Assembly (NCBI GenBank): GCA_964016885.1
Contig: CAXHJY010000437.1
Location: 186,001 to 250,000, forward strand
Source: Eledone cirrhosa
Lineage: Eukaryota
Length of the DNA: 64,000 nucleotides
Reading direction: 5' to 3'
Shown here: positions 5,266-64,000 of the stretch, piece by piece
Numbering within the stretch: position 1 is the first letter of the stretch
Layout: the number at the start of each line of letters is the position of its first letter
Notes under the pieces: model-generated
Database searches by the model: none
What the model was told of the DNA's origin: nothing
Seen by the model: the letters and a program-made list of their open reading frames with translations, nothing else
Made by a program: the position numbers and the translations under genes

Positions 5266-8200
5266 TGCTACAATAGTGCTACAAATTTTTCTGGGTGGGA
5301 AATGACGATGGGATGGGTGGTGTAGGTATACTATTAGCTGACAAGTGGGTAGATAAAGTAATCTCAGTGTACAGGGTAAATGCAAGAATCATTAAACTCA
5401 GACTAGTCCTGAATAAGACAATTACCACAATAATATCAGCTTACGCACCCCAATCGGGGCTGCCAGACGAACTTAAGGATAGGTTTTACGAGTCCCTAAT
5501 ACACACTACTGCTCTAACAGACGACAAGGACTTCCTAATCATTGCAGGAGATTTTAACGGACACGTAGGTAAACACTGCGACGGCTTCAATAGAGTACAT
5601 GGAGGCCATGGAGTTGGCACAAGGAATGAGGAAGGATTCAGACTTCTAGAATTCTGCGACGCCAATGACATGTCGATATGTAACACAAACTTTAAAAAAC
5701 CCGACAACCACCTGATCACCTATAGATCAGGGGAGCACTCTAGTCAGTTAGATTTTATCCTCATCAGAGGACGTGACAGATGGACGGTCGTAAACACAAA
5801 AGCCTTCCCTAGTGAGGAATGTACATCCCAACATAGCTTAGTTGTCAGCGACCTCACGGTCAGAACTAGACGAGCCCTGAAACAGAGGCCAACCTGGAGA
5901 AGAAAGATCTGGAAGCTGAAAGTCCCCTCAACCAGTAACAGATTTAAAGATATTTTACTCAACGCCTACGACAGTAAAGAAGAACAGATAGAGACATTTA
6001 ACGTAGAAGAGAACTGGGAGTTCCTAAAAAATAACTTACTAGAGGCGACGGATGAGGTTTGTGGCTGGAGTAAGACCTCAAGCAGGAGGAGAGTGACTTG
6101 GTGGTGGAACAATAAGGTAGATGAAGCAGTCAAGGCCAAGAGACAGGCATGGAAAGAATGGAAGAACGGGGGGAGCAGGGTACATTACATAGAGACCAAG
6201 AGGGAAGCTAGGCGACAAGTATACTTAGCTAGGAGGGAAGCAGAGGATAGAAAATTCAAGCATGTTTTACAACGTGAGGACCAGAAACAGGAGGTATTCA
6301 AGATTGCGAGGCAGTGTGTCAGAGATAGTTGTGATGTCATTGGAGAGAAGTGTATCCGGAATGATAAAGGTGAGCTTGCCCTCACAAGTGCTGAGAAGAA
6401 AGATGCATGGAAGAGTCATTATGATAGATTACTAAATGAGGAGAATGCATGGGAAGAAGAGACCCTACCCCACGTAGACCCTATAGAGGGACCAGCAGTA
6501 CAAGTCAGCGGCAGCGTAGTAAGTAAGGCAATCAGAGATATGAAGATAGGGAAGGCAACCGGTCCATCGGGTATAGCTGCCGAGATGCTGAAGGCATCTG
6601 GGTCTGTAGGTCACACTATAACCACACGTATCGTTAACCAGGTAATACTAGAGGGGGCCATACCAAAAGATTGGTGCAGTAGCATCATTGTCAACTGCTA
6701 CAAAGGTAAAGGCGATGCACTAGATAGAGGAAACTATAGAGGTATAAAGTTGATGGACCAGGTCATGAAAGTAACAGAAAGAGTTATAGCACAGCTGATT
6801 AGGGACCGGGTGAATATAGACGAGATGCAATTTGGGTTTGTTCCAGGGAAAGGCACCACTGATGCGCTCTTCCTTGTGAGGCAATTACAGGAAAAGTACC
6901 TAGCTAAAAGTAAGCCACTCTACTTGGCATTTGTCGACCTTGAGAAAGCCTTTGACAGAGTTCCACGTGCAGTAATCTGGTGGGCTCTTAGAAAACTAGG
7001 AGTAGATGAATGGCTTGTGAAAGCGGTACAAGCCATGTATAGGGGAGCAGTCAGCAAAGTTAGGATTGGCAATGAGTATAGCGAGGAATTTAGCGTACAG
7101 GTTGGGGTCCACCAGGGCTCTGTTCTTAGCCCTCTCCTGTTCATCATAGTCCTGCAGGCAATAACGGAGGAGTTTAAGACCGGATGCCCATGGGAACTCC
7201 TGTATGCTGATGACCTCGCACTCATAGCTGAATCTATGGTAGAACTAGAGAATAAATTCCAAACCTGGAAGCAGGGACTAGAGAGAAAGGGCCTCAAAGT
7301 CAACATGACAAAGACTAAGGTCCTTATAAGTAGACGAGAAAACAGAACCCAGATCCCCTCAGGGAAATGGCCTTGCTCAGTATGTAGGAAAGGTGTAGGT
7401 AGGAACTCCATTCTTTGCCCCAAATGCAAACAATGGGTACACAAGAGATGTAGCGGGATCTCAGGAAGCTTAATTAAGAATGTAGGATTCACATGCAGCA
7501 GCTGTGCTGAAACAGCAAGCAAACAGCCACAGGAAACAAGTACCACCAATCTCTGGGAGGGCCCTGTAGAAACAGTAGACAGCTTCTGCTACCTAGGTGA
7601 CCGAATTAGCAACGGAGGTGGGTGCTCAGAAAGTACAATAACTAGGGTAAGAACGGGATGGAAGAAGTTTAGGGAACTACTACCACTGCTAGCTGCAAAA
7701 GGCTTCTCCCTCAGAATGAAAGGCAGACTGTATGATGCGTGTATCCGAACAGCGATGTTGCATGGTAGTGAGACCTGGGCGCTGAAGGTGGAAGACTTAC
7801 GTAGATTAGAGAGAAACGAAGCCTGCATGCTCCGATGGATGTGTAACAGTAATATACGTGAACGACAAAGCATAAATGAATTGAGAGAGAGACTGAGCAT
7901 AAGAGGAATCAAATGCTGTGTGCAGGAGAGGCGGTTACGCTGGTATGGACATGTGATGCGTATGAAGGATGACAGCTGCATAAAAAGGTGCAGAGCACTA
8001 GAAGTTGATGGAAACCGCGGTGTGGGGAGACCCAAGATGACTTGGGATGAGGTGATAAAAGCCGACCTTACCCAACTACACCTCTCAAAGTCAATGACAC
8101 ACGACCGTGACTTCTGGCGTCACGCAGTAATACAGGGTACCCGACCTCCCATGGGTACATGCTGAAGCATATAAACAATATGCCCCCCCCCCCCCACCGC

Positions 8201-28300: not shown

Positions 28301-28885
28301 ATAAACACATAGATATTCAAACACACACAGACATGCACTCTCTTACATATAGACATATATATTCACACACAACATATAGTGTTGCACACAAAACACATAC
28401 ACATGTGTAAACACTGCTATAGAGTTACAGTATCTCTCTATTGATCTATTTGCTCTTCTCTCTCTTAGCCACACACAGTGTGCATTTGTATGTATGTATA
28501 TGTATATATGTATATATATGTATATTTATGTATATATGTGTATATATATATGTGTATATGTGTATATGTATATATATATGTATATATATATGTATATATG
28601 TATGTATATATGTATATATATGTATATGTATATGTATAGGTATATGTATATATGTATGTATATTTATATATCTATATATATGTATATGTATATGTGTATA
28701 TGTATATATGTATATGTGTATATATATATAAATATATATCCCACTCTTGCAAGCATGGAAAAGAGGACGTAAAATGATGATAATATATATATATATATAT
28801 GTATATATAAAAGTAGCGAAACAAACGGTTATTAAACAATTTTCTAAATAAATTAAAAAATGATTAAATAATCACCTGTTCAGAT

Positions 28886-28966
28886 GCTGTTACCGACGGT
28901 TTCATCATTCCGAAAGATTGGAAATCCAACGAATTTCCAATGGAAAGAAATGAATCTTCAGACAGC
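28886..28966 (-). ncRNA. Type I hammerhead ribozyme (copy 1)
   Basis: Minus strand GCTGT-CTGAAGA-[long stem II including ATTGGAAAT/ATTTCCAAT]-GAAA-CCGTCGG-TA-ACAGC; stem I GCTGT/ACAGC. Confidence 0.8.
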
Positions 28967-29342
28967 CCTATTTCCACGCTATAAGGTATAGCAAGTAAAT
29001 ATTATGCTCCCTGCCCAACGCATGCGGTCAAGCCGTTAAAGTGACACACACGCAAATCAGGTCGCTGATAAAAGCTGGATATTATAAACATGTCGAATTG
29101 CCACTAAAATTAGCGGCATTATTCAACGTTTTGTTCTCTACGTAAGGAGAATAAATTATAGAAGTGGATGGATACTTCAACAGGTACAATGTACTTGTAG
29201 AAATATTCAAGTTGTTTATAATACATGTGGTTCAATGGCACTAATTCGAGATACCAGAACAATATAAAAGTAGCGAAACAAACGGTTATTAAACAATTTT
29301 CTAAATAAATTAAAAAATGATTAAATAATCACCTGTTCAGAT

Positions 29343-29423
29343 GCTGTTACCGACGGTTTCATCATTCCGAAAGATTGGAAATCCAACGAATTTCCAATGG
29401 AAAGAAATGAATCTTCAGACAGC
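29343..29423 (-). ncRNA. Type I hammerhead ribozyme (copy 2)
   Basis: Identical to 28886-28966, 457 bp downstream. Confidence 0.8.
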
Positions 29424-29504
29424 CCTATTTCCACGCTATAAGGTATAGCAAGTAAATATTATGCTCCCTGCCCAAAGCATGCGGTCAAGCCGTTAAAGTG
29501 ACAC

Positions 29505-30431
29505 ATGTATATATATCTATATATCCATTATGCCAAACCCATGACTTCCAAACATCTGATCCACCGAAACTCGGCCGTTTCGGACCATACCAAAATCAAC
29601 ATACTGATTGCGGATTTGGTACGGGTGATGAGAAATGTGTCCCGCATGTGCAACCCCGAAGAACTAGAGAGACACATACAACACTTCATCCACCGTATGC
29701 AGTTCTCTAGCTACAATCAGAGAGATAAAATCACAGTGTATAGAGGAGCCAGAACCAAATGGGAAAAAATGGTAAATAATGACATAAATGGTACCTGCCC
29801 CTTGTATAGGAGCAAATTTTGGAATAGAATAGAAAGAACTAGGAACAAGGCTAATAGAATAAACTCATGGTATGATAGCAATAAATACCAGAGTGTAATG
29901 TTCATCAATACAACCCCTAGAGGTGAATTAGCTTACAAATTTAGAAGGGCCCTAGATAAACATAAACTCAATATTAAGATAGTAGAAAGACCAGGTACCT
30001 CCGTAAAAACACTTATTAGCAAGACATACCCTTTTCAAAGACCCTCATGTATGGATAAGAAATGTATAACCTGTAAAATAAGCCCCCATATTAACTGTAA
30101 AACTAGAAATGTAGTGTATAGCATAAGATGTACTGAAGGACAATGTAGAGACAAAAATATAGTGTACATAGGTGAGACAGCTCGTAGTGTAGGGGAACGG
30201 ATAAATGAACACTGGCGAGACCTTCAAGATAGTAAAGAATCATCTGTACTCTACCAACATGCTAAAATAGAACACAAGGGTAAATTAGAGAACATAGAAA
30301 TAAAAATAGAATCCACACACAGAAAAGACGCAATGTTTAGACAAATCACAGAGGCAATAAACATAAAAGAATTACAACCAAAATTAAATAGAAAATATGA
30401 GTGGAACAGCAACATCACAACTTACAATTAA
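29505..30431 (+). CDS. PLE protein C-terminal part: RT thumb, Cys-rich linker and GIY-YIG endonuclease
   Basis: CxxxxCxxC linker; NVVYSIRC..VYIGETARSVGERINEH..QH...H..RQITEAINI...PKLN; the start lies in a TA repeat, so the true 5' end is truncated. Confidence 0.88.
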   Translation: MYIYLYIHYAKPMTSKHLIHRNSAVSDHTKINILIADLVRVMRNVSRMCNPEELERHIQHFIHRMQFSSYNQRDKITVYRGARTKWEKMVNNDINGTCPLYRSKFWNRIERTRNKANRINSWYDSNKYQSVMFINTTPRGELAYKFRRALDKHKLNIKIVERPGTSVKTLISKTYPFQRPSCMDKKCITCKISPHINCKTRNVVYSIRCTEGQCRDKNIVYIGETARSVGERINEHWRDLQDSKESSVLYQHAKIEHKGKLENIEIKIESTHRKDAMFRQITEAINIKELQPKLNRKYEWNSNITTYN

Positions 30432-30872
30432 GGACAAAATGAAAACACACATAGAACAAACAACCAACCAGTAACATGTAAATAAACAAATAAATAAATG
30501 AATATAAACACACACAGACACCTGGATGTGGCGCATGCGCAGACTGAGCACACAACACACACACAGAAACAAAATGGCGTAGGACAGAACAAAGGAGAGG
30601 CACAAAAAACAAAGAAAAGAATCACCAGTCACTGAAGAGGTCACAGAGTGTGTGACGAAAGAACTATGACAATATATAAACAACTATCTGGTTGTGGAAC
30701 AAACCAACCAACCAGAAATTTATAAATTTATAAATTTATTATAATAAATTGAAGTGAAAGCAACTGGTGCGTGTGTTTCTTATTGGCAACATGACCCTCC
30801 CAAAGTATAACAATATCGGTTTCAACACACGATTTCAGATAAAGAATCTTGCTAAACAAATTCAGAAACGAA
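29527..30872 (+). mobile_element. Penelope-like element, 5'-truncated (RT thumb + GIY-YIG ORF + pseudo-LTR)
   Basis: ORF 29505-30431; 3' pLTR with a hammerhead; related pLTRs at 22.7, 62.0 and 63.7 kb. Confidence 0.9.
30628..30670 (+). ncRNA. Minimal hammerhead ribozyme in the PLE pseudo-LTR
   Basis: GTCA-CTGAAGA-G-GTCACA/TGTGAC-GAAA-GAAC-TA-TGAC; stem I GTCA/TGAC. Confidence 0.7.
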
Positions 30873-31069
30873 ATATATATATATATATATATATGTATAT
30901 AGATATGTATGTATATGTATATATATATATATATATGTATATGTATGTATATGTATACCCCCTCTCTATACATATGTATATATATGTATATATATATGTT
31001 TATATATGTATATAGATATGTATGTATATGTATATATATATGTATATGTATGTATATGTATATATATGC

Positions 31070-38667: not shown

Positions 38668-41090
38668 CATCATCATCATCATCATCATCAACGTTTAACG
38701 TCCGTGTTCCACGCTTGCATGGGTTTGGACGGGGGTAGTCCCACTTGAGGCAAGAGTGATTGTCTTGCTCGCATAGGACTGTCTGGCAGGTTTTCTACAG
38801 TTGGATGCCCTTCCTAACACCAACCACATTTACAGTGTGGGTCTGGGAGGTTTTTACCGTGTTGCCTACACGGCCACATTACAGCGTGGACTGTGTGTTT
38901 TTTTGTCGTGACACCTACACGATCTCATTTGTTTCGGCCTGGATGGCGCGGCACCAACATAACTTTACATAGAACGGGGTGCTGTGGATGGGGTGGGGGT
39001 GGCGGCGGGAGGGGTGTATTTTGTTAGAGATGCCTACTGGCAAGGCGGGTCTTCTCTGTTACTGAGTACCGCCAAAGGTCACGGTCCAGTGACATTGTCT
39101 TGGAAAGGTGTAAGTGTGTGAGGTCGGAGTTTATCAGCTCATCCCATGTTTTTCTAGGTCTGCCTATTCCGTGGCTACCGTCTATCTTTATTGCCCTGCA
39201 CTTTGTAATACAGCTATCGACTTTCATGCGCATCACGTGTCCATACCAACGCAGCCTTCTCTCGAGTAAACAACATCTGATCCCTCTTATCTCTAATTTT
39301 TTCCTTAGTTCGTTTATGCTTTGCCGTTCACGTATATTACTGTTACACATCCAGCGGAGCATGCAAGCTTCGTTCCTCTCTAGTCTGCGTATATCCTCTG
39401 CACACAATGCCCAGGTCTCACTACCATGCAACATTGCTGTTCGTATGCAGGCATCGTACAACCTGCCTTTCATTTTTAGGGAGAACCCTTTAGCAGCTAA
39501 TAGTGGTATAAGCTCTCTGAACTTTTTCCAACCAGTTCTGACTCTAGCTACAGTACTTTCAGAGCACCCTCCCCCACTGCTGATTTTATCGCCCAGGTAA
39601 CGGAAGCTGTCCACTATTTCTATAGAACCCTCTGCGCAATTGAAAGAGCTAGTATTTTGTGGGCACTTGCTGCTACTTATTGCACCAGAACACCGGCCAC
39701 ATGTAAAGTCTATGTTCTTAGTTAGCTTACCTGTGATCCCACTACATCTTTTATGCACCCATACTTTGCATTTAGGACATAAGATGGAGTTTCTACCTAC
39801 GCCTTTCCTACATACCGAGCACGACCATTTCCCAGAAGGGACCGCCGCCTTGTTTTCTTTCCTACAAACTAGAACTTTGGTCTTAGCCAGGTTAATTTTA
39901 AGTCCTTTTGACTCTAGGCCGTGCTTCCATGTTTGGAATTTCTTCTCTAGCTCGGCCATTGATTCCGCTATGAGTGTCAGGTCGTCTGCGTATAGGAGTT
40001 CCCATGGGCAGCCTGTCTTGAACTCCTCTGTTATAGCCTGAAGGGCAATAATAAATAGTAGGGGGCTGAGAACAGAGCCCTGATGGACGCCAACTTTTAC
40101 GCTAAACTCTTCACTATATTCGTTGTTAATTCTAACCTTGCTGACTGTTTCTTTATACATGGCTTGTATAGCCCTCACAAGCCATTCGTCAACGCCTAGT
40201 TTTCTAAGAGCCCACCAGATAATGGAGCGGGGGACTCTGTCGAAGGCTTTCTCCAGGTCGACAAAAGCTAAGTAGAGGGGTTTACCTTTAGCTAGGTACT
40301 TCTCCTGTAGTTGTCGTACTATGAAAAGAGCGTCTGTGGTGCTTTTGCCTGACACAAACCCGAACTGCATTTCATCTAGATCAATTCTCTCTCTGATTAG
40401 TTGCGCTATTACTTTTTCCGTGACCTTCATGACCTGGTCGATTAATTTAATGCCTCTATAGTTACTCCTATCTAGGGCGTCTCCTTTACCCTTATAACAG
40501 TTAACGATGATGCTGCTATGCCAGTCCTTCGGAACAACCCCATTCTGTACGACTTGGTTAACTATGCGGGTGACCATGGTGTGTCCCACCGTGCCAGATG
40601 CCTTCAGCATCTCAGCAACTATTTCCGAAGGCCCAGCCGCCTTACCAGTCTTCATATCCTTGATTGCCTTACTTATTATACTCCCCTCGACTAACACTGC
40701 TGGTCCCTCTATCGGGTCGATAAGGGGGAGACTGTCTTTCTCCCATTTATTCTCCTCATTTAGTAGCCTTTCATAGTGACACTTCCAAGCTACCTTCTTA
40801 TCAGTGTCGGTGATGGCAAGTATGCCATCATCGTTAAGTACACACTTCTCCCCGACAATATCACGGTTTTCCTTGACGCATTGCCTGGCAATCCTGAACA
40901 CCTCACGTTTTTGGTCATCGCGTTGTAGAACATGCTTGAACTTTCTTTCCTCAGCTTCCCTTCTTGCTAAGTACACTTCTCTCCTAGCTTCCCTCCTGGC
41001 CACTTGATAGTCTACTCTACTTCCCCCATCCCGCCATACTTTCCAAGCCTGCTTTTTGGCCTTAATTGACCCCTCCACCCTATTGTTCCC
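38667..41090 (-). mobile_element. RTE-A 5'-truncated copy with an uninterrupted 684-aa RT ORF (39024-41078)
   Basis: All RT motifs present; a small deletion at the stop gives read-through to RLASRHL; (CAT)n tail. Confidence 0.95.
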
Positions 41091-60625: not shown

Positions 60626-61909
60626 AAAAAGAACATGAAATCATAATTTAGCATTTCTCTACATTTGAAGCAGTCTGAATCCTTTTTCAAACAAAGTTAT
60701 ATGGAAGTCAGTTCTGCTAAACGTTTTAGCATTAATTTAATTTCTGTTGCATTTCTCAATAACATTTAAAAAGAGATAAAACTGGAAGGGGAGAGAAATG
60801 AAGAAAAATATCAAAATAGAAAAAATAAACATGATGAATTTTTACACCTTGATGTAGTTGGATTGAGACTAATGCAACACTTCCTATTGAACTATCAAGG
60901 TTTCGAAGGTATGTCCTGCTTAGCTGTTCCAGCTAGTAGAAATAGTAGTCAAATCACACTCCTAATAACACTCTACTATCCTGAAAAAGAAATAACTGCA
61001 TTGGATAATCTAGTTTTAAATAGATTGTCTGAATACTTAAAAAGGGTGAGATGGTCATAGCTGGAATGACTTTGATAATAATTTTGTTGTATCAGAGTTT
61101 ACCTTGGACTAAATAACAACAATATAATTAAACCAGTTAGGGAGCCATTCTGTGGTCACTAAATCAGCTGGCAAGAACAGACAATTCTTCCACAAATTCC
61201 ACCCTAAAAGACATGCTGAATAATCTAGTCCTAGATATATTAGGACAAAAAAGATGGTTTAGTCATAATTGGAACACATTTGAAGATAGGTCTACTTTAT
61301 CAGGACTGACCTAGGGTTGAACAAAAACAACAATATTCCTCTTGACTATCAGCTATAAACTTTCAATTTTAATTGTATATGTGGAATTAGATATGCTAGC
61401 TCAGCCCTTCATAGATTCTTTCCACTCACAAACATACGATACACCATTAAAAAAGAACAAGAATTTACAAGGAGTTTCATTATGAAATGCTGATGGCATA
61501 TATAATGAATATAAATGGCACCAACCATAGATCCAAACAGTGCCGAATTACATAAATAAGTAAATATGTAACTAAATATAGAAGTAAAAAATACAAAAAC
61601 AAAAATTCAGCTGCTTCTCCTCAAAGAAGTAAAATTTCTATCATAATCTATTTAGTTTCAATTGCAATGTTTTTTTTTTTAAATTGTATTCGTGAAATAT
61701 ATCTGTAGGCTACAAAATATCGACCCAGTGAATCTATTCAGAGTACTTGAAAATGAAATAGTTAATGTATGTATGTACATATGCATGTATACATACAGAC
61801 ACACACACGAGTGTGTATATATGTATGTACATATGCATGTATACGCACACACACACGAGTGTGTATATATGTATGTATGTAGATATGTTTTGTTTGTTTG
61901 TTTGTTTTT

Positions 61910-62210
61910 TTGTGCCTCTCCTTTGTTCTGTCCTACGCCATCTTGTTTGGTGTATGGCGTAGGACAGAACAAAGGAGAGGCACAAGGGGAGAACAAAGAA
62001 AATAGTCCCCAGTCATTGAAGAGGTCGCAGAGTGTGTGACGAAGGAGCTTTGACAATATATGAACAATCGTCTGGTTGTGGAACCAACCAACGAACCGGA
62101 AATTTGTAAATTCCTAAATTTATAGATTTGATTTGTGATAAATTGAAGTGAGAGTGGCTGGTACGTGTGTTTCTTGTTGGCAGCATGACCCTCCCAAAGC
62201 ATAACAATAT
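61910..62210 (+). mobile_element. PLE pseudo-LTR fragment with a 32-bp 5' inverted duplication and a mutated hammerhead (62012-62054)
   Basis: Matches ~30574-30816; arms 61910-61941 and 61954-61985. Confidence 0.85.
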
Positions 62211-62230
62211 GTATATATATATATATATAT

Positions 62231-63590
62231 TGCTAAGGCTTTTAATTCTGTGCCACACAAAATACTTATGGCAAAACTCTCTGCAATGGGTGTGAGGGAT
62301 GATCTTTTCGACTGGTTGAAATCCTTCATTCTCAGCCGAAAAGAAGTAGTCACGGTTCTAGGACAGCATTCTTCACCATATGAGATGTCATCTGGTGTAC
62401 CACAGGGATCTGTTCTTGGTCCCCTTTTGTTTGTGGCATATATTAATGACATAGATGCCAACTTACAGAATGCCACGGTACTGAAATATGCAGATGACAT
62501 CAAGCTGTACCTTGAAATCAAAAGGACTGATCCTGAAATCTACAACTCTTTCCTACAATCAGACCTGGACACAATGCAGCAATGGATCACAGACTGGCAA
62601 CTGAATCTGGCTGTGGGCAAGTGTACCACCATGTATTTTGGGAGGAAAAATCCAGCGTCCACATACTCCCTCCACAACACTGATATCAAGAAGTCCTCTT
62701 GTGAACATGACCTGGGCATTACTGTCAGCAGCGATTTGCGTTGGACAAAGCATGTCTCTAAGATTGTCAAGAAGGCCGAGGGTGTCTTGGCATCACTCAG
62801 CAAGACCTTTGTTAGCCGCTCTCCAGCCATCTATTTAAAACTGTTTACAGCTATGGTACGACCACACTTGGAATTCACATCATCAGTCTGGAACCTCTAT
62901 CTTGCTCAGAACATTGACCTCCTGGAAACTGTTCAGAGACGTGCAACCAAGCGCATATCCTCCATCAGACACCTACCATACTCTGAACGCCTTGCTTCCC
63001 TGGGCATGGATTCATTGAAGCTCCGACGTCTGGCAATGGACTTGGTAAATACCCACAAAGTTATTAACCATCTCGCCAATTGCAGCCTTGAGCACCTTTT
63101 TGATCTCCATGTGTCTAACACACGTGGACATGCCTACAAAATCAGAAAACAGTACAGCTCCCATGACTTTTGTAGACATTTTTTCACGCTCAGAGTTGCT
63201 GAAGCATGGAACAAACTGCCTGCGTCAGTTGTTAGCTGCCGAGACACTGCATCCTTTAAGACACTCATGCTTCCCGAAATACGCCAAAACTACACCTGAT
63301 GTACCCCTTCCATACACATGCACACATGTGTGTATCATGACTCGTGCACTGTTCATTTTCCTGATGTTTGTGCATTGTCCTATGTACTGTACATGCACTT
63401 TTTGATGAGTTCTGGTGCACCTGGGCACTGTACACAATATTTCATTATTATTATTATTATTATATCATGACTCATACACTGTTCATTTTCCTGACATTTG
63501 TACATTATTCTATGTACTATACATGCACCTTTGATGAGTTGTAGTGCACCTGAGCACTGTACACAATAATTTCATTATTATTATATTATA
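62231..63590 (+). mobile_element. CR1-like LINE, 5'-truncated, with a duplicated 3' end
   Basis: ORF 62250-63299: SGVPQGSVLGPLLF, YADDIKL, RPHLEF..VW, VQRRATK, TRGH; (ATT)n tails at ~63445 and ~63575. Confidence 0.92.
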
Positions 63591-63634
63591 TGTATGTATA
63601 TATATATTGTATATATATATGTATGTATATATAT

Positions 63635-64000
63635 CGTTTCTGAATTTGTTTAGCAAGATTCTTTATCTGAAATCGTGTGTTGAAACCGATATTGTTATAC
63701 TTTGGGAGGGTCATGTTGCCAATAAGAAACACACGCACCAGTTGCTTTCACTTCAATTTATTATATATTTATAAATTTACAAATTTATAAATTTATAAAT
63801 TTCTGGTTGGTTGGTTGGTTCCACAACCAGATAGTTGTTTATATATAGTCATAGTCCTTTCGTCACACACTCTGTGACCTCTTCAGTGACTGGGGATTCC
63901 TTTCTTTGTCTCCGTGCCTCTCCTTTGTTCTGTCCTACGCCATTTTGTTTCTGATTGCGGGTTTGGTGCGGGTGATGGGAGATGTGTCCCGCGTGTGCGG
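63635..64000. mobile_element. PLE copy: inverted pseudo-LTR (minus, 63635-63953, hammerhead 63848-63890) joined to plus-strand ORF sequence (63951-64000, continues beyond the window)
   Basis: Reverse complement of ~30564-30870, then a match to 29604-29653; CTG microhomology at the junction. Confidence 0.88.

Follow-up and report, generated by a model that had tools for sequence, protein, structure and literature searches.

Dense sense-strand A-to-G tracts in Penelope-like retrotransposon copies of Eledone cirrhosa, consistent with reverse transcription of ADAR hyper-edited RNA

The far end of a 64,000-nt stretch of the Eledone cirrhosa genome (the window, i.e. the whole stretch analysed, G000:C464:186001-250000 on a contig of 282 kb) holds a copy of a Penelope-like element (PLE), which runs about 1.2 kb beyond the window end and in which over half of the As of a 543-nt tract are replaced by G on the sense strand. 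Independent tracts of this kind (A>G) are borne by 15 insertions of the family in all, the focal copy included. The focal insertion lies in a (TA)n-type microsatellite and is made up of two diverging arms (Table 1), with BLAST limits of 63573-63953 for the inverted arm and from 63951 onward for the direct one. Downstream of the tract follow a nearly unedited GIY-YIG end and a 3' pseudo-long terminal repeat (pLTR) without tail, while the short arm falls outside the edited tract and so bears no edit barcode.

By its coding capacity and repeat organisation, the element is a young, high-copy Penelope-like retrotransposon, and the preliminary description of the window had also taken the focal copy for a PLE, which the reverse transcriptase (RT) plus GIY-YIG-like frame, the pLTR and the diverging arms bear out. 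A family 26-mer occurs at about 6,235 places in the genome, and unedited copies are 99% alike among the 40 matches listed. As in endonuclease-bearing (EN+) PLEs, one open reading frame (ORF) encodes RT followed by a C-terminal GIY-YIG-like endonuclease, and copies, which are tailed at one end, carry a pLTR and 5' copies in partial-tandem or inverted arrangement. One copy, L002, keeps a 691-codon frame in the A form; its protein gives a weak RVT_1 match below the cut-off, the YVDD and VVY...YIG motifs are directly visible, and the closest protein match, from Octopus vulgaris, is 68% identical. Pfam searches returned no GIY-YIG match on the query itself and no match at all on the 309-aa window frame; the homologue P0113 exceeds the Pfam GIY-YIG cut-off. 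In the comparator copy, the frame at 29502-30431 comprises the RT C-terminus, a CX4CX2C linker and the GIY-YIG-like domain, and the linker ahead of the endonuclease fits Neptune as a candidate clade (PMC8557442, available text). Arms are diverging-inverted in 33 of 89 loci and tandem in 11 of 89 (a few being two views of one insertion), and the 3' ends form two classes about 65 nt apart, with the tail present or absent. RT followed by a GIY-YIG-like domain, pLTRs, 5' truncation, an inverted 5' copy, a one-end tail and microsatellite targets are all shared with canonical C-terminal-endonuclease PLEs as described in the available parts of PMC8557442 and PMC11167929, whereas the tail is about 65 nt here compared with 30-40 bp there, and edits provide a per-molecule barcode here of which those parts make no use.

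Pairwise alignment of 63951-64000 with 29604-29653 gives seven mismatches in 50 nt, all of them A>G and affecting 7 of the 11 As, exactly as first described; these edits lie at 63961, 63968, 63978, 63981, 63993, 63999 and 64000. Followed past the window end, as the preliminary description had suggested, the tract carries on to the window-equivalent position 64503. Over its full length (C464:249961-250503, window-equivalent 63961-64503, reference 1236-1778, with reference coordinates taken from the natural copy L002:320-2766 and edits scored at near-invariant columns only), G replaces A at 117 of 216 As, with two other substitutions. The edge at reference 1778 is sharp, and past it identity to the 29.6-kb copy is back to about 97%. 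Across the family, background A>G amounts to 335 changes in 107,071 As (0.0031 per A), a rate at which the chance of the focal tract is about 1e-230. Within it, 95 of 185 codons are altered, 78 of them non-synonymously and none to a stop, with all three codon positions affected. Within the window, 424 pairwise repeat alignments of at least 80 nt were scanned, and no further single-type cluster came to light.

At the seven first edit sites, A is carried by 74-79 of 80-81 aligned family arms and is therefore ancestral, as had been supposed. The G version of the focal tract is a single copy in the genome, its next best match reaching 84%, and the top matches to it turned out to be further A>G copies. 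The reverse reading, in which G is ancestral and the 29.6-kb copy decayed from G to A, or in which the G form represents a subfamily, had been named beforehand as what would overturn the proposal; it is refuted by the family majority for A and the uniqueness of the G form, its probability is practically nil, and it is the A form that retains the long open frame with its octopus relative. It does hold, but for variants in the pLTR only. Here, about five A-to-G changes in the inverted pLTR had initially been counted as part of the signature, a reading that was rejected because the variants are widespread subfamily alleles: among 89 loci, the G variants GGCACGGAGAC, GAAAGGACTATG and AAGAAAGGAATC occur at 11, 42 and 60, respectively, while the pLTR form of the 29.6-kb copy, GGCACAAAAAAC, occurs at one, and A>C and A>T changes are interspersed among the A>G ones.

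Table 1 Parts of the focal insertion and the comparator copy (window positions)
Feature	Position	Strand	Remarks
Sense arm start, 5'-truncated	63951..64000	+	arm ends beyond the window at G000:C464:251199
Inverted short arm (pLTR plus ~65-nt tail)	63634..63953	-	ends in (TA)n-type microsatellite; not hyper-edited
Junction between the diverging arms	63951..63953	.	3-nt overlap CTG common to both alignments
Hammerhead-like core in pLTR, candidate	63858..63886	-	CTGAAGA, stem II hairpin, GAAA by eye
Unedited 5'-truncated comparator copy of the family	29525..30880	+	pLTR with tail

Among the edited insertions, tracts range from 50 to 1100 nt in length. The 14 insertions besides the focal one are nearly pure A>G, but three of them show 8-40 other differences; L037, L019 and L183 have short or patchy tracts, and L159, L164 and L181 are more diverged copies. 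Left out were L090, a divergent row with changes of mixed type, L171, which aligned poorly, and duplicate retrievals of one place. When 228 de-duplicated arms from 144 loci were screened for single-type clusters, A>G clusters were found in 8 arms (7 loci) and clusters of the other 11 substitution types in none, with six of those seven loci having been recovered with an A>G-biased query. One 26-nt site served for a matched comparison, in which G was required at a TAG adenosine, with T>C required in the mirror pattern. Of 26 sense matches, 13 were hyper-edited (11 insertions), 12 were not and one was unclear, whereas 0 of 21 mirror matches were hyper-mutated, which upholds a strand bias of the kind that the preliminary description had proposed to tabulate. 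When the edited 3' and 5' stretches were used as queries, 58 other loci were recovered, none of them a new edited copy. A further PLE copy, outside the 15, carries six A>G changes in the 26-nt site (G000:C1:42797031-42797056).

Edit patterns overlap only partly between insertions (Jaccard 0.20-0.59), as a shared site preference would give, and even the closest pair, L159/L181, shares 61 of 104 sites and differs at 43. On the same Jaccard values, the possibility that the edited copies are one expanded lineage was rejected. The edited share of the family is estimated at about 0.2-1% of copies, a figure that rests on one site and derives from 13 of 6,235 (with a site type edited in about 60%) together with one further edited copy among the first 100 matches listed.

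The same phenomenon recurs in a second class of element. L206 (G000:C7:81237598-81240623), an RTE-like long interspersed element (LINE) copy, differs over 2.3 kb from the window copy at 38794-41089 by 247 A>G changes and 6 of other types, and its neighbours are ADAR-like (67/114 As edited after T, 9/110 after G). A two-site LINE pattern found 1 of 9,007 places (L206), the mirror pattern 0. With one choice of second site the corresponding PLE count is 5 hits in 6,235, with another 10 insertions (Fisher p 0.045 and 0.0009, respectively, compared with LINE), which hints at a higher editing rate in PLE than in LINE, the compared sites not being equivalent. The related LINE frame in the window has APE, RT and PHD matches. 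At window 5277-8165, a 962-codon RTE-like frame encodes an endonuclease and an RT, the latter followed by a PHD finger, and many nested truncated relatives of it are spread across the window.

An artefact of sequencing or assembly, with a consensus of low quality at this place, had been named beforehand as a third way in which the proposal could fall and has to be considered, since the focal contig is short, the tract is known from an assembly, and systematic single-type errors are known in assemblies, for instance G-to-A in Sanger traces (PMC2873906, available text). Nevertheless, in an indirect check, contigs of runs X1 and X2 contained 0.97 and 0.94, respectively, of the 78 words sampled from the focal stretch (0.59 in X3), and the change tracks element sense on both contig strands at 16 places (the 15 insertions and L206), leaving an artefact barely credible. 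Homopolymer error in particular was rejected, isolated As (47/85) and As in runs (70/131) of the focal tract being altered alike.

Neighbour preferences were pooled from the best tract of each insertion, giving 15 tracts with 1148 edited of 2947 As; as these are maximal-scoring segments, the overall edited fraction is inflated, whereas the neighbour ranking is not. By 5' neighbour, edited As amount to 396/727 after T (54%), 530/1119 after A (47%), 132/560 after C (24%) and 90/541 after G (17%). The proportion after T or A (926/1846) thus exceeds that after G, with L206 and all 15 tracts agreeing in direction, so that the ADAR-type 5' G depletion for which the preliminary description had proposed a test is indeed present. 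By 3' neighbour, 325/584 As before G are edited (0.56) compared with 823/2363 before the other bases (0.30-0.37), and 3' G accounts for 325 of 1148 edited sites (28%). According to the available text of PMC5625713, 5' G depletion is common to all ADARs and octopus is the strongest hyper-editor; downstream A is enriched in invertebrates, with 3' G reduced in octopus to 20-25% of sites. The tracts combine clustered, near-pure A>G, its location on the strand that was RNA, and 5' G depletion with U/A favoured. They resemble the hyper-edited RNA clusters of metazoan transcriptomes, extreme in octopus, in their dense A>G within repeats and their 5' G depletion; those clusters, however, are RNA-only differences from the genome, whereas here the differences sit in DNA (PMC5625713, available text). 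TpA-specific hypermutation was rejected, with 47% of As after A altered and one strand only affected. PF02137 deaminase domains, which may be of ADAR1, ADAR2, ADAD or ADAT type, are found at four genome places. At L153/L154 (G000:C6:13644405-13646174), an adenosine deaminase domain lies in two pieces inside 700-codon open frames, unlike the multi-exon deaminase loci on C1 and C25.

ADAR can act on the DNA strand of RNA:DNA hybrids. An adenine deaminase (ADAR on such a hybrid, or another enzyme) could have altered the sense-strand DNA during or after insertion; this too would yield A>G with ADAR-like neighbours, and it is in DNA that the edits are known here. Deamination of first-strand cDNA would, however, give sense T>C, which was seen in 0 of 21 PLE mirror matches and at no place with the LINE mirror pattern, and deamination after insertion would not repeat a pattern in both inverted arms unless one arm was later copied from the other, so that we regard this route as improbable. 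Such repetition is what the arms display. Those of L036/L162 share 32 of 32 edits, with 5 other differences; those of L179 share 62/62 and 29/29 edits, with no differences; and those of L035 share 44 of 48, the remaining 4 lying within a patch with other differences. Edits common to both inverted arms in three insertions argue that editing took place before the arms were made and that one template served for both. L179 taken alone could also reflect later homogenisation or palindromic assembly. This locus (G000:C22:15914452-15917477) is a near-perfect palindrome in which both arms run from reference 1523, with a tail on one arm only and with 26 of the identical edits in the pLTR start. In L035:2334-2446, a long-arm patch lacks 4-5 of the inverted-arm edits and carries other alleles, possibly through gene conversion by another copy.

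Bursts of RT error under a skewed deoxynucleotide pool, with dC placed opposite rA, would explain both the sense polarity and a link of edited tracts with truncation without any RNA editor. They would require misincorporation of about 50% in the near absence of other errors, and predict neither the order of 5' neighbours (T/A over C over G), nor the sharp edge at reference 1778, nor that an unrelated LINE RT leaves the same pattern, nor, with an RNA read twice, that the sites in both arms coincide; this explanation is therefore highly improbable. As to truncation, a 5' end beyond reference 1000 is found in 10/11 edited and 14/32 unedited copies (Fisher p 0.012, with the cut-off chosen post hoc and L205, without an arm over the site, left out), and a Mann-Whitney test likewise shows edited copies to be more truncated (p 0.007). 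The first edit lies no more than 31 nt from the 5' junction in 10 of 15 insertions. RT thus seems to stop within edited or still-paired RNA. At the opposite end, the last 150 nt are spared, with 13 of 756 As edited at reference 2301-2447 compared with 20-30% in the 3' half of the ORF. Protein shielding, or a start site that has to stay intact, would fit this, and a simple read-through hairpin is disfavoured as substrate. As for the arms, L035 and the focal copy have the tail on the short arm and lack it on the long arm, and a simple fold-back from a long cDNA thereby fails unless trimmed. Both strands are reported to be cut and extended in a PLE, with two RT start sites (PMC11167929, available text), and our preferred view is that two primings on one RNA gave both arms.

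Taken together, an RNA template hyper-edited by ADAR, reverse-transcribed and fixed as an A>G tract, is very probably the origin of the focal sequence. The proposal made in the preliminary description, that hyper-edited PLE RNA was retrotransposed, gains support from the strand affected, the bias in neighbours, the uniqueness of the G version, the recurrence among 15 insertions and in one LINE, and arms that share edits. In such a sequence of events, part of the sense RNA would become double-stranded, most likely by pairing with antisense RNA that stems from family copies, numerous as these are, in inverted position or under antisense transcription, and ADAR would deaminate about half of the As within this part. 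Element protein, supplied in trans or by earlier translation, would then bind the mostly unedited 3' end and prime at a nicked (TA)n target; RT would place C opposite inosine, fixing G, would often halt inside the edited or still-paired segment and leave a truncated copy, and both arms would come from the same template. The germ line or early embryo would be the setting.

Several points weigh against this account. The edit signature is known here from assembled DNA, and the germline status of the copies is judged from their presence in the assembly. Runs X1-X3 stem from one sample, possibly the source of the assembly, and so speak against consensus error rather than for inheritance. On the 3' side the match to ADAR is not clean, G being favoured here and A in invertebrates (PMC5625713, available text). 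Inverted copies, in which the family is rich, are a putative source of the double-stranded RNA partner, but a read-through hairpin of a diverging pair predicts most editing at the 3' end, which is spared. Furthermore, ADAR1 restricts L1 in cell culture without detectable editing (PMC5224506, available text).

The earlier suggestion that editing acts as a heritable mutator stands for a small fraction of copies only (about 0.2-1%), and a meaningful restriction of the elements by editing is at most putative: heavy recoding of the ORFs and stronger 5' truncation mark the edited copies, yet they make up this small share of a family of thousands. A wider proposition has about an even chance of being right. 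In this view, ADAR hyper-editing repeatedly mutates the retrotransposons of this genome in the germ line, edited RNAs of PLEs and LINEs being turned into heritable DNA by RT; the editing, or the duplex beneath it, aborts RT and disables the copy; edits barcode single RNA molecules and reveal one template behind both arms of an inverted PLE insertion, probably through two primings, one at each cut DNA end; and PLEs are favoured as their own inverted insertions supply the antisense RNA.

Some further features of the window concern the same kind of element. Stem II of the candidate hammerhead-like core folds (z -0.28), and an Rfam search for a hammerhead in the pLTR gave no match beyond low-complexity ones. 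At 61900-62215 lies a short diverging pLTR pair from a PLE family that is related but more diverged; the pair forms a palindrome, lacks a coding body and is about 84% identical to the 30.6-kb pLTR. A 244-nt direct repeat with 99.6% identity (28805-29048 / 29262-29505) is located just upstream of the 29.5-kb PLE copy.

Among known precedents, clustered A>G in proviruses of bovine leukemia virus (BLV), in clusters of about 70 bp in the 3' LTR, has been ascribed to ADAR (PMC8025556), and ADAR-type A-to-G hypermutation in Rous-associated virus 1 (RAV-1), avian leukosis virus (ALV) and the human and simian T-cell viruses HTLV-2/STLV-3 is cited in PMC8586724 (available text in both cases). These retroviral cases are alike in that clustered sense A>G is fixed in DNA by reverse transcription, but concern somatic or cell-culture proviruses, whereas PLE and LINE copies of an assembled genome are affected here and no virus is involved. 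For an endogenous mouse mammary tumor virus (MMTV), ADAR was considered and rejected on context (PMC12548423, available text). APOBEC G-to-A scars in vertebrate LTR elements (PMC4866542, PMC2873906, available text) are likewise deaminase scars on a retroelement intermediate, germline-fixed, strand-biased and polarised by the family majority; they differ as G-to-A changes from cDNA deamination in vertebrate LTR elements, compared with A-to-G at the RNA stage in non-LTR elements and PLEs of one invertebrate. The screen selecting G-to-A found 19 invertebrate genomes depleted, which served as negative control (PMC4866542, available text). The available text of PMC5974252 holds nothing on fixed edits, and a literature search for germline A-to-G hyper-edited transposon copies, in which subscription journals were poorly covered, found no report.

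A-to-I editing is usually regarded as non-heritable, whereas here it has apparently been written into the genome repeatedly. The finding represents an RNA-stage counterpart of APOBEC scars, and it does so within the invertebrates, the negative control of the APOBEC screen. The effect of editing on copy number is probably small. If the reading is true, edited copies would be dated fossils of ADAR activity in the germ line. The activity and specificity of germline ADAR through time become testable from assemblies alone. The same would apply to the question of whether editing limits retrotransposition through catalysis, cell-culture work on L1 having found no editing, and to the origin of Penelope inverted structures, because edit patterns trace single template molecules.
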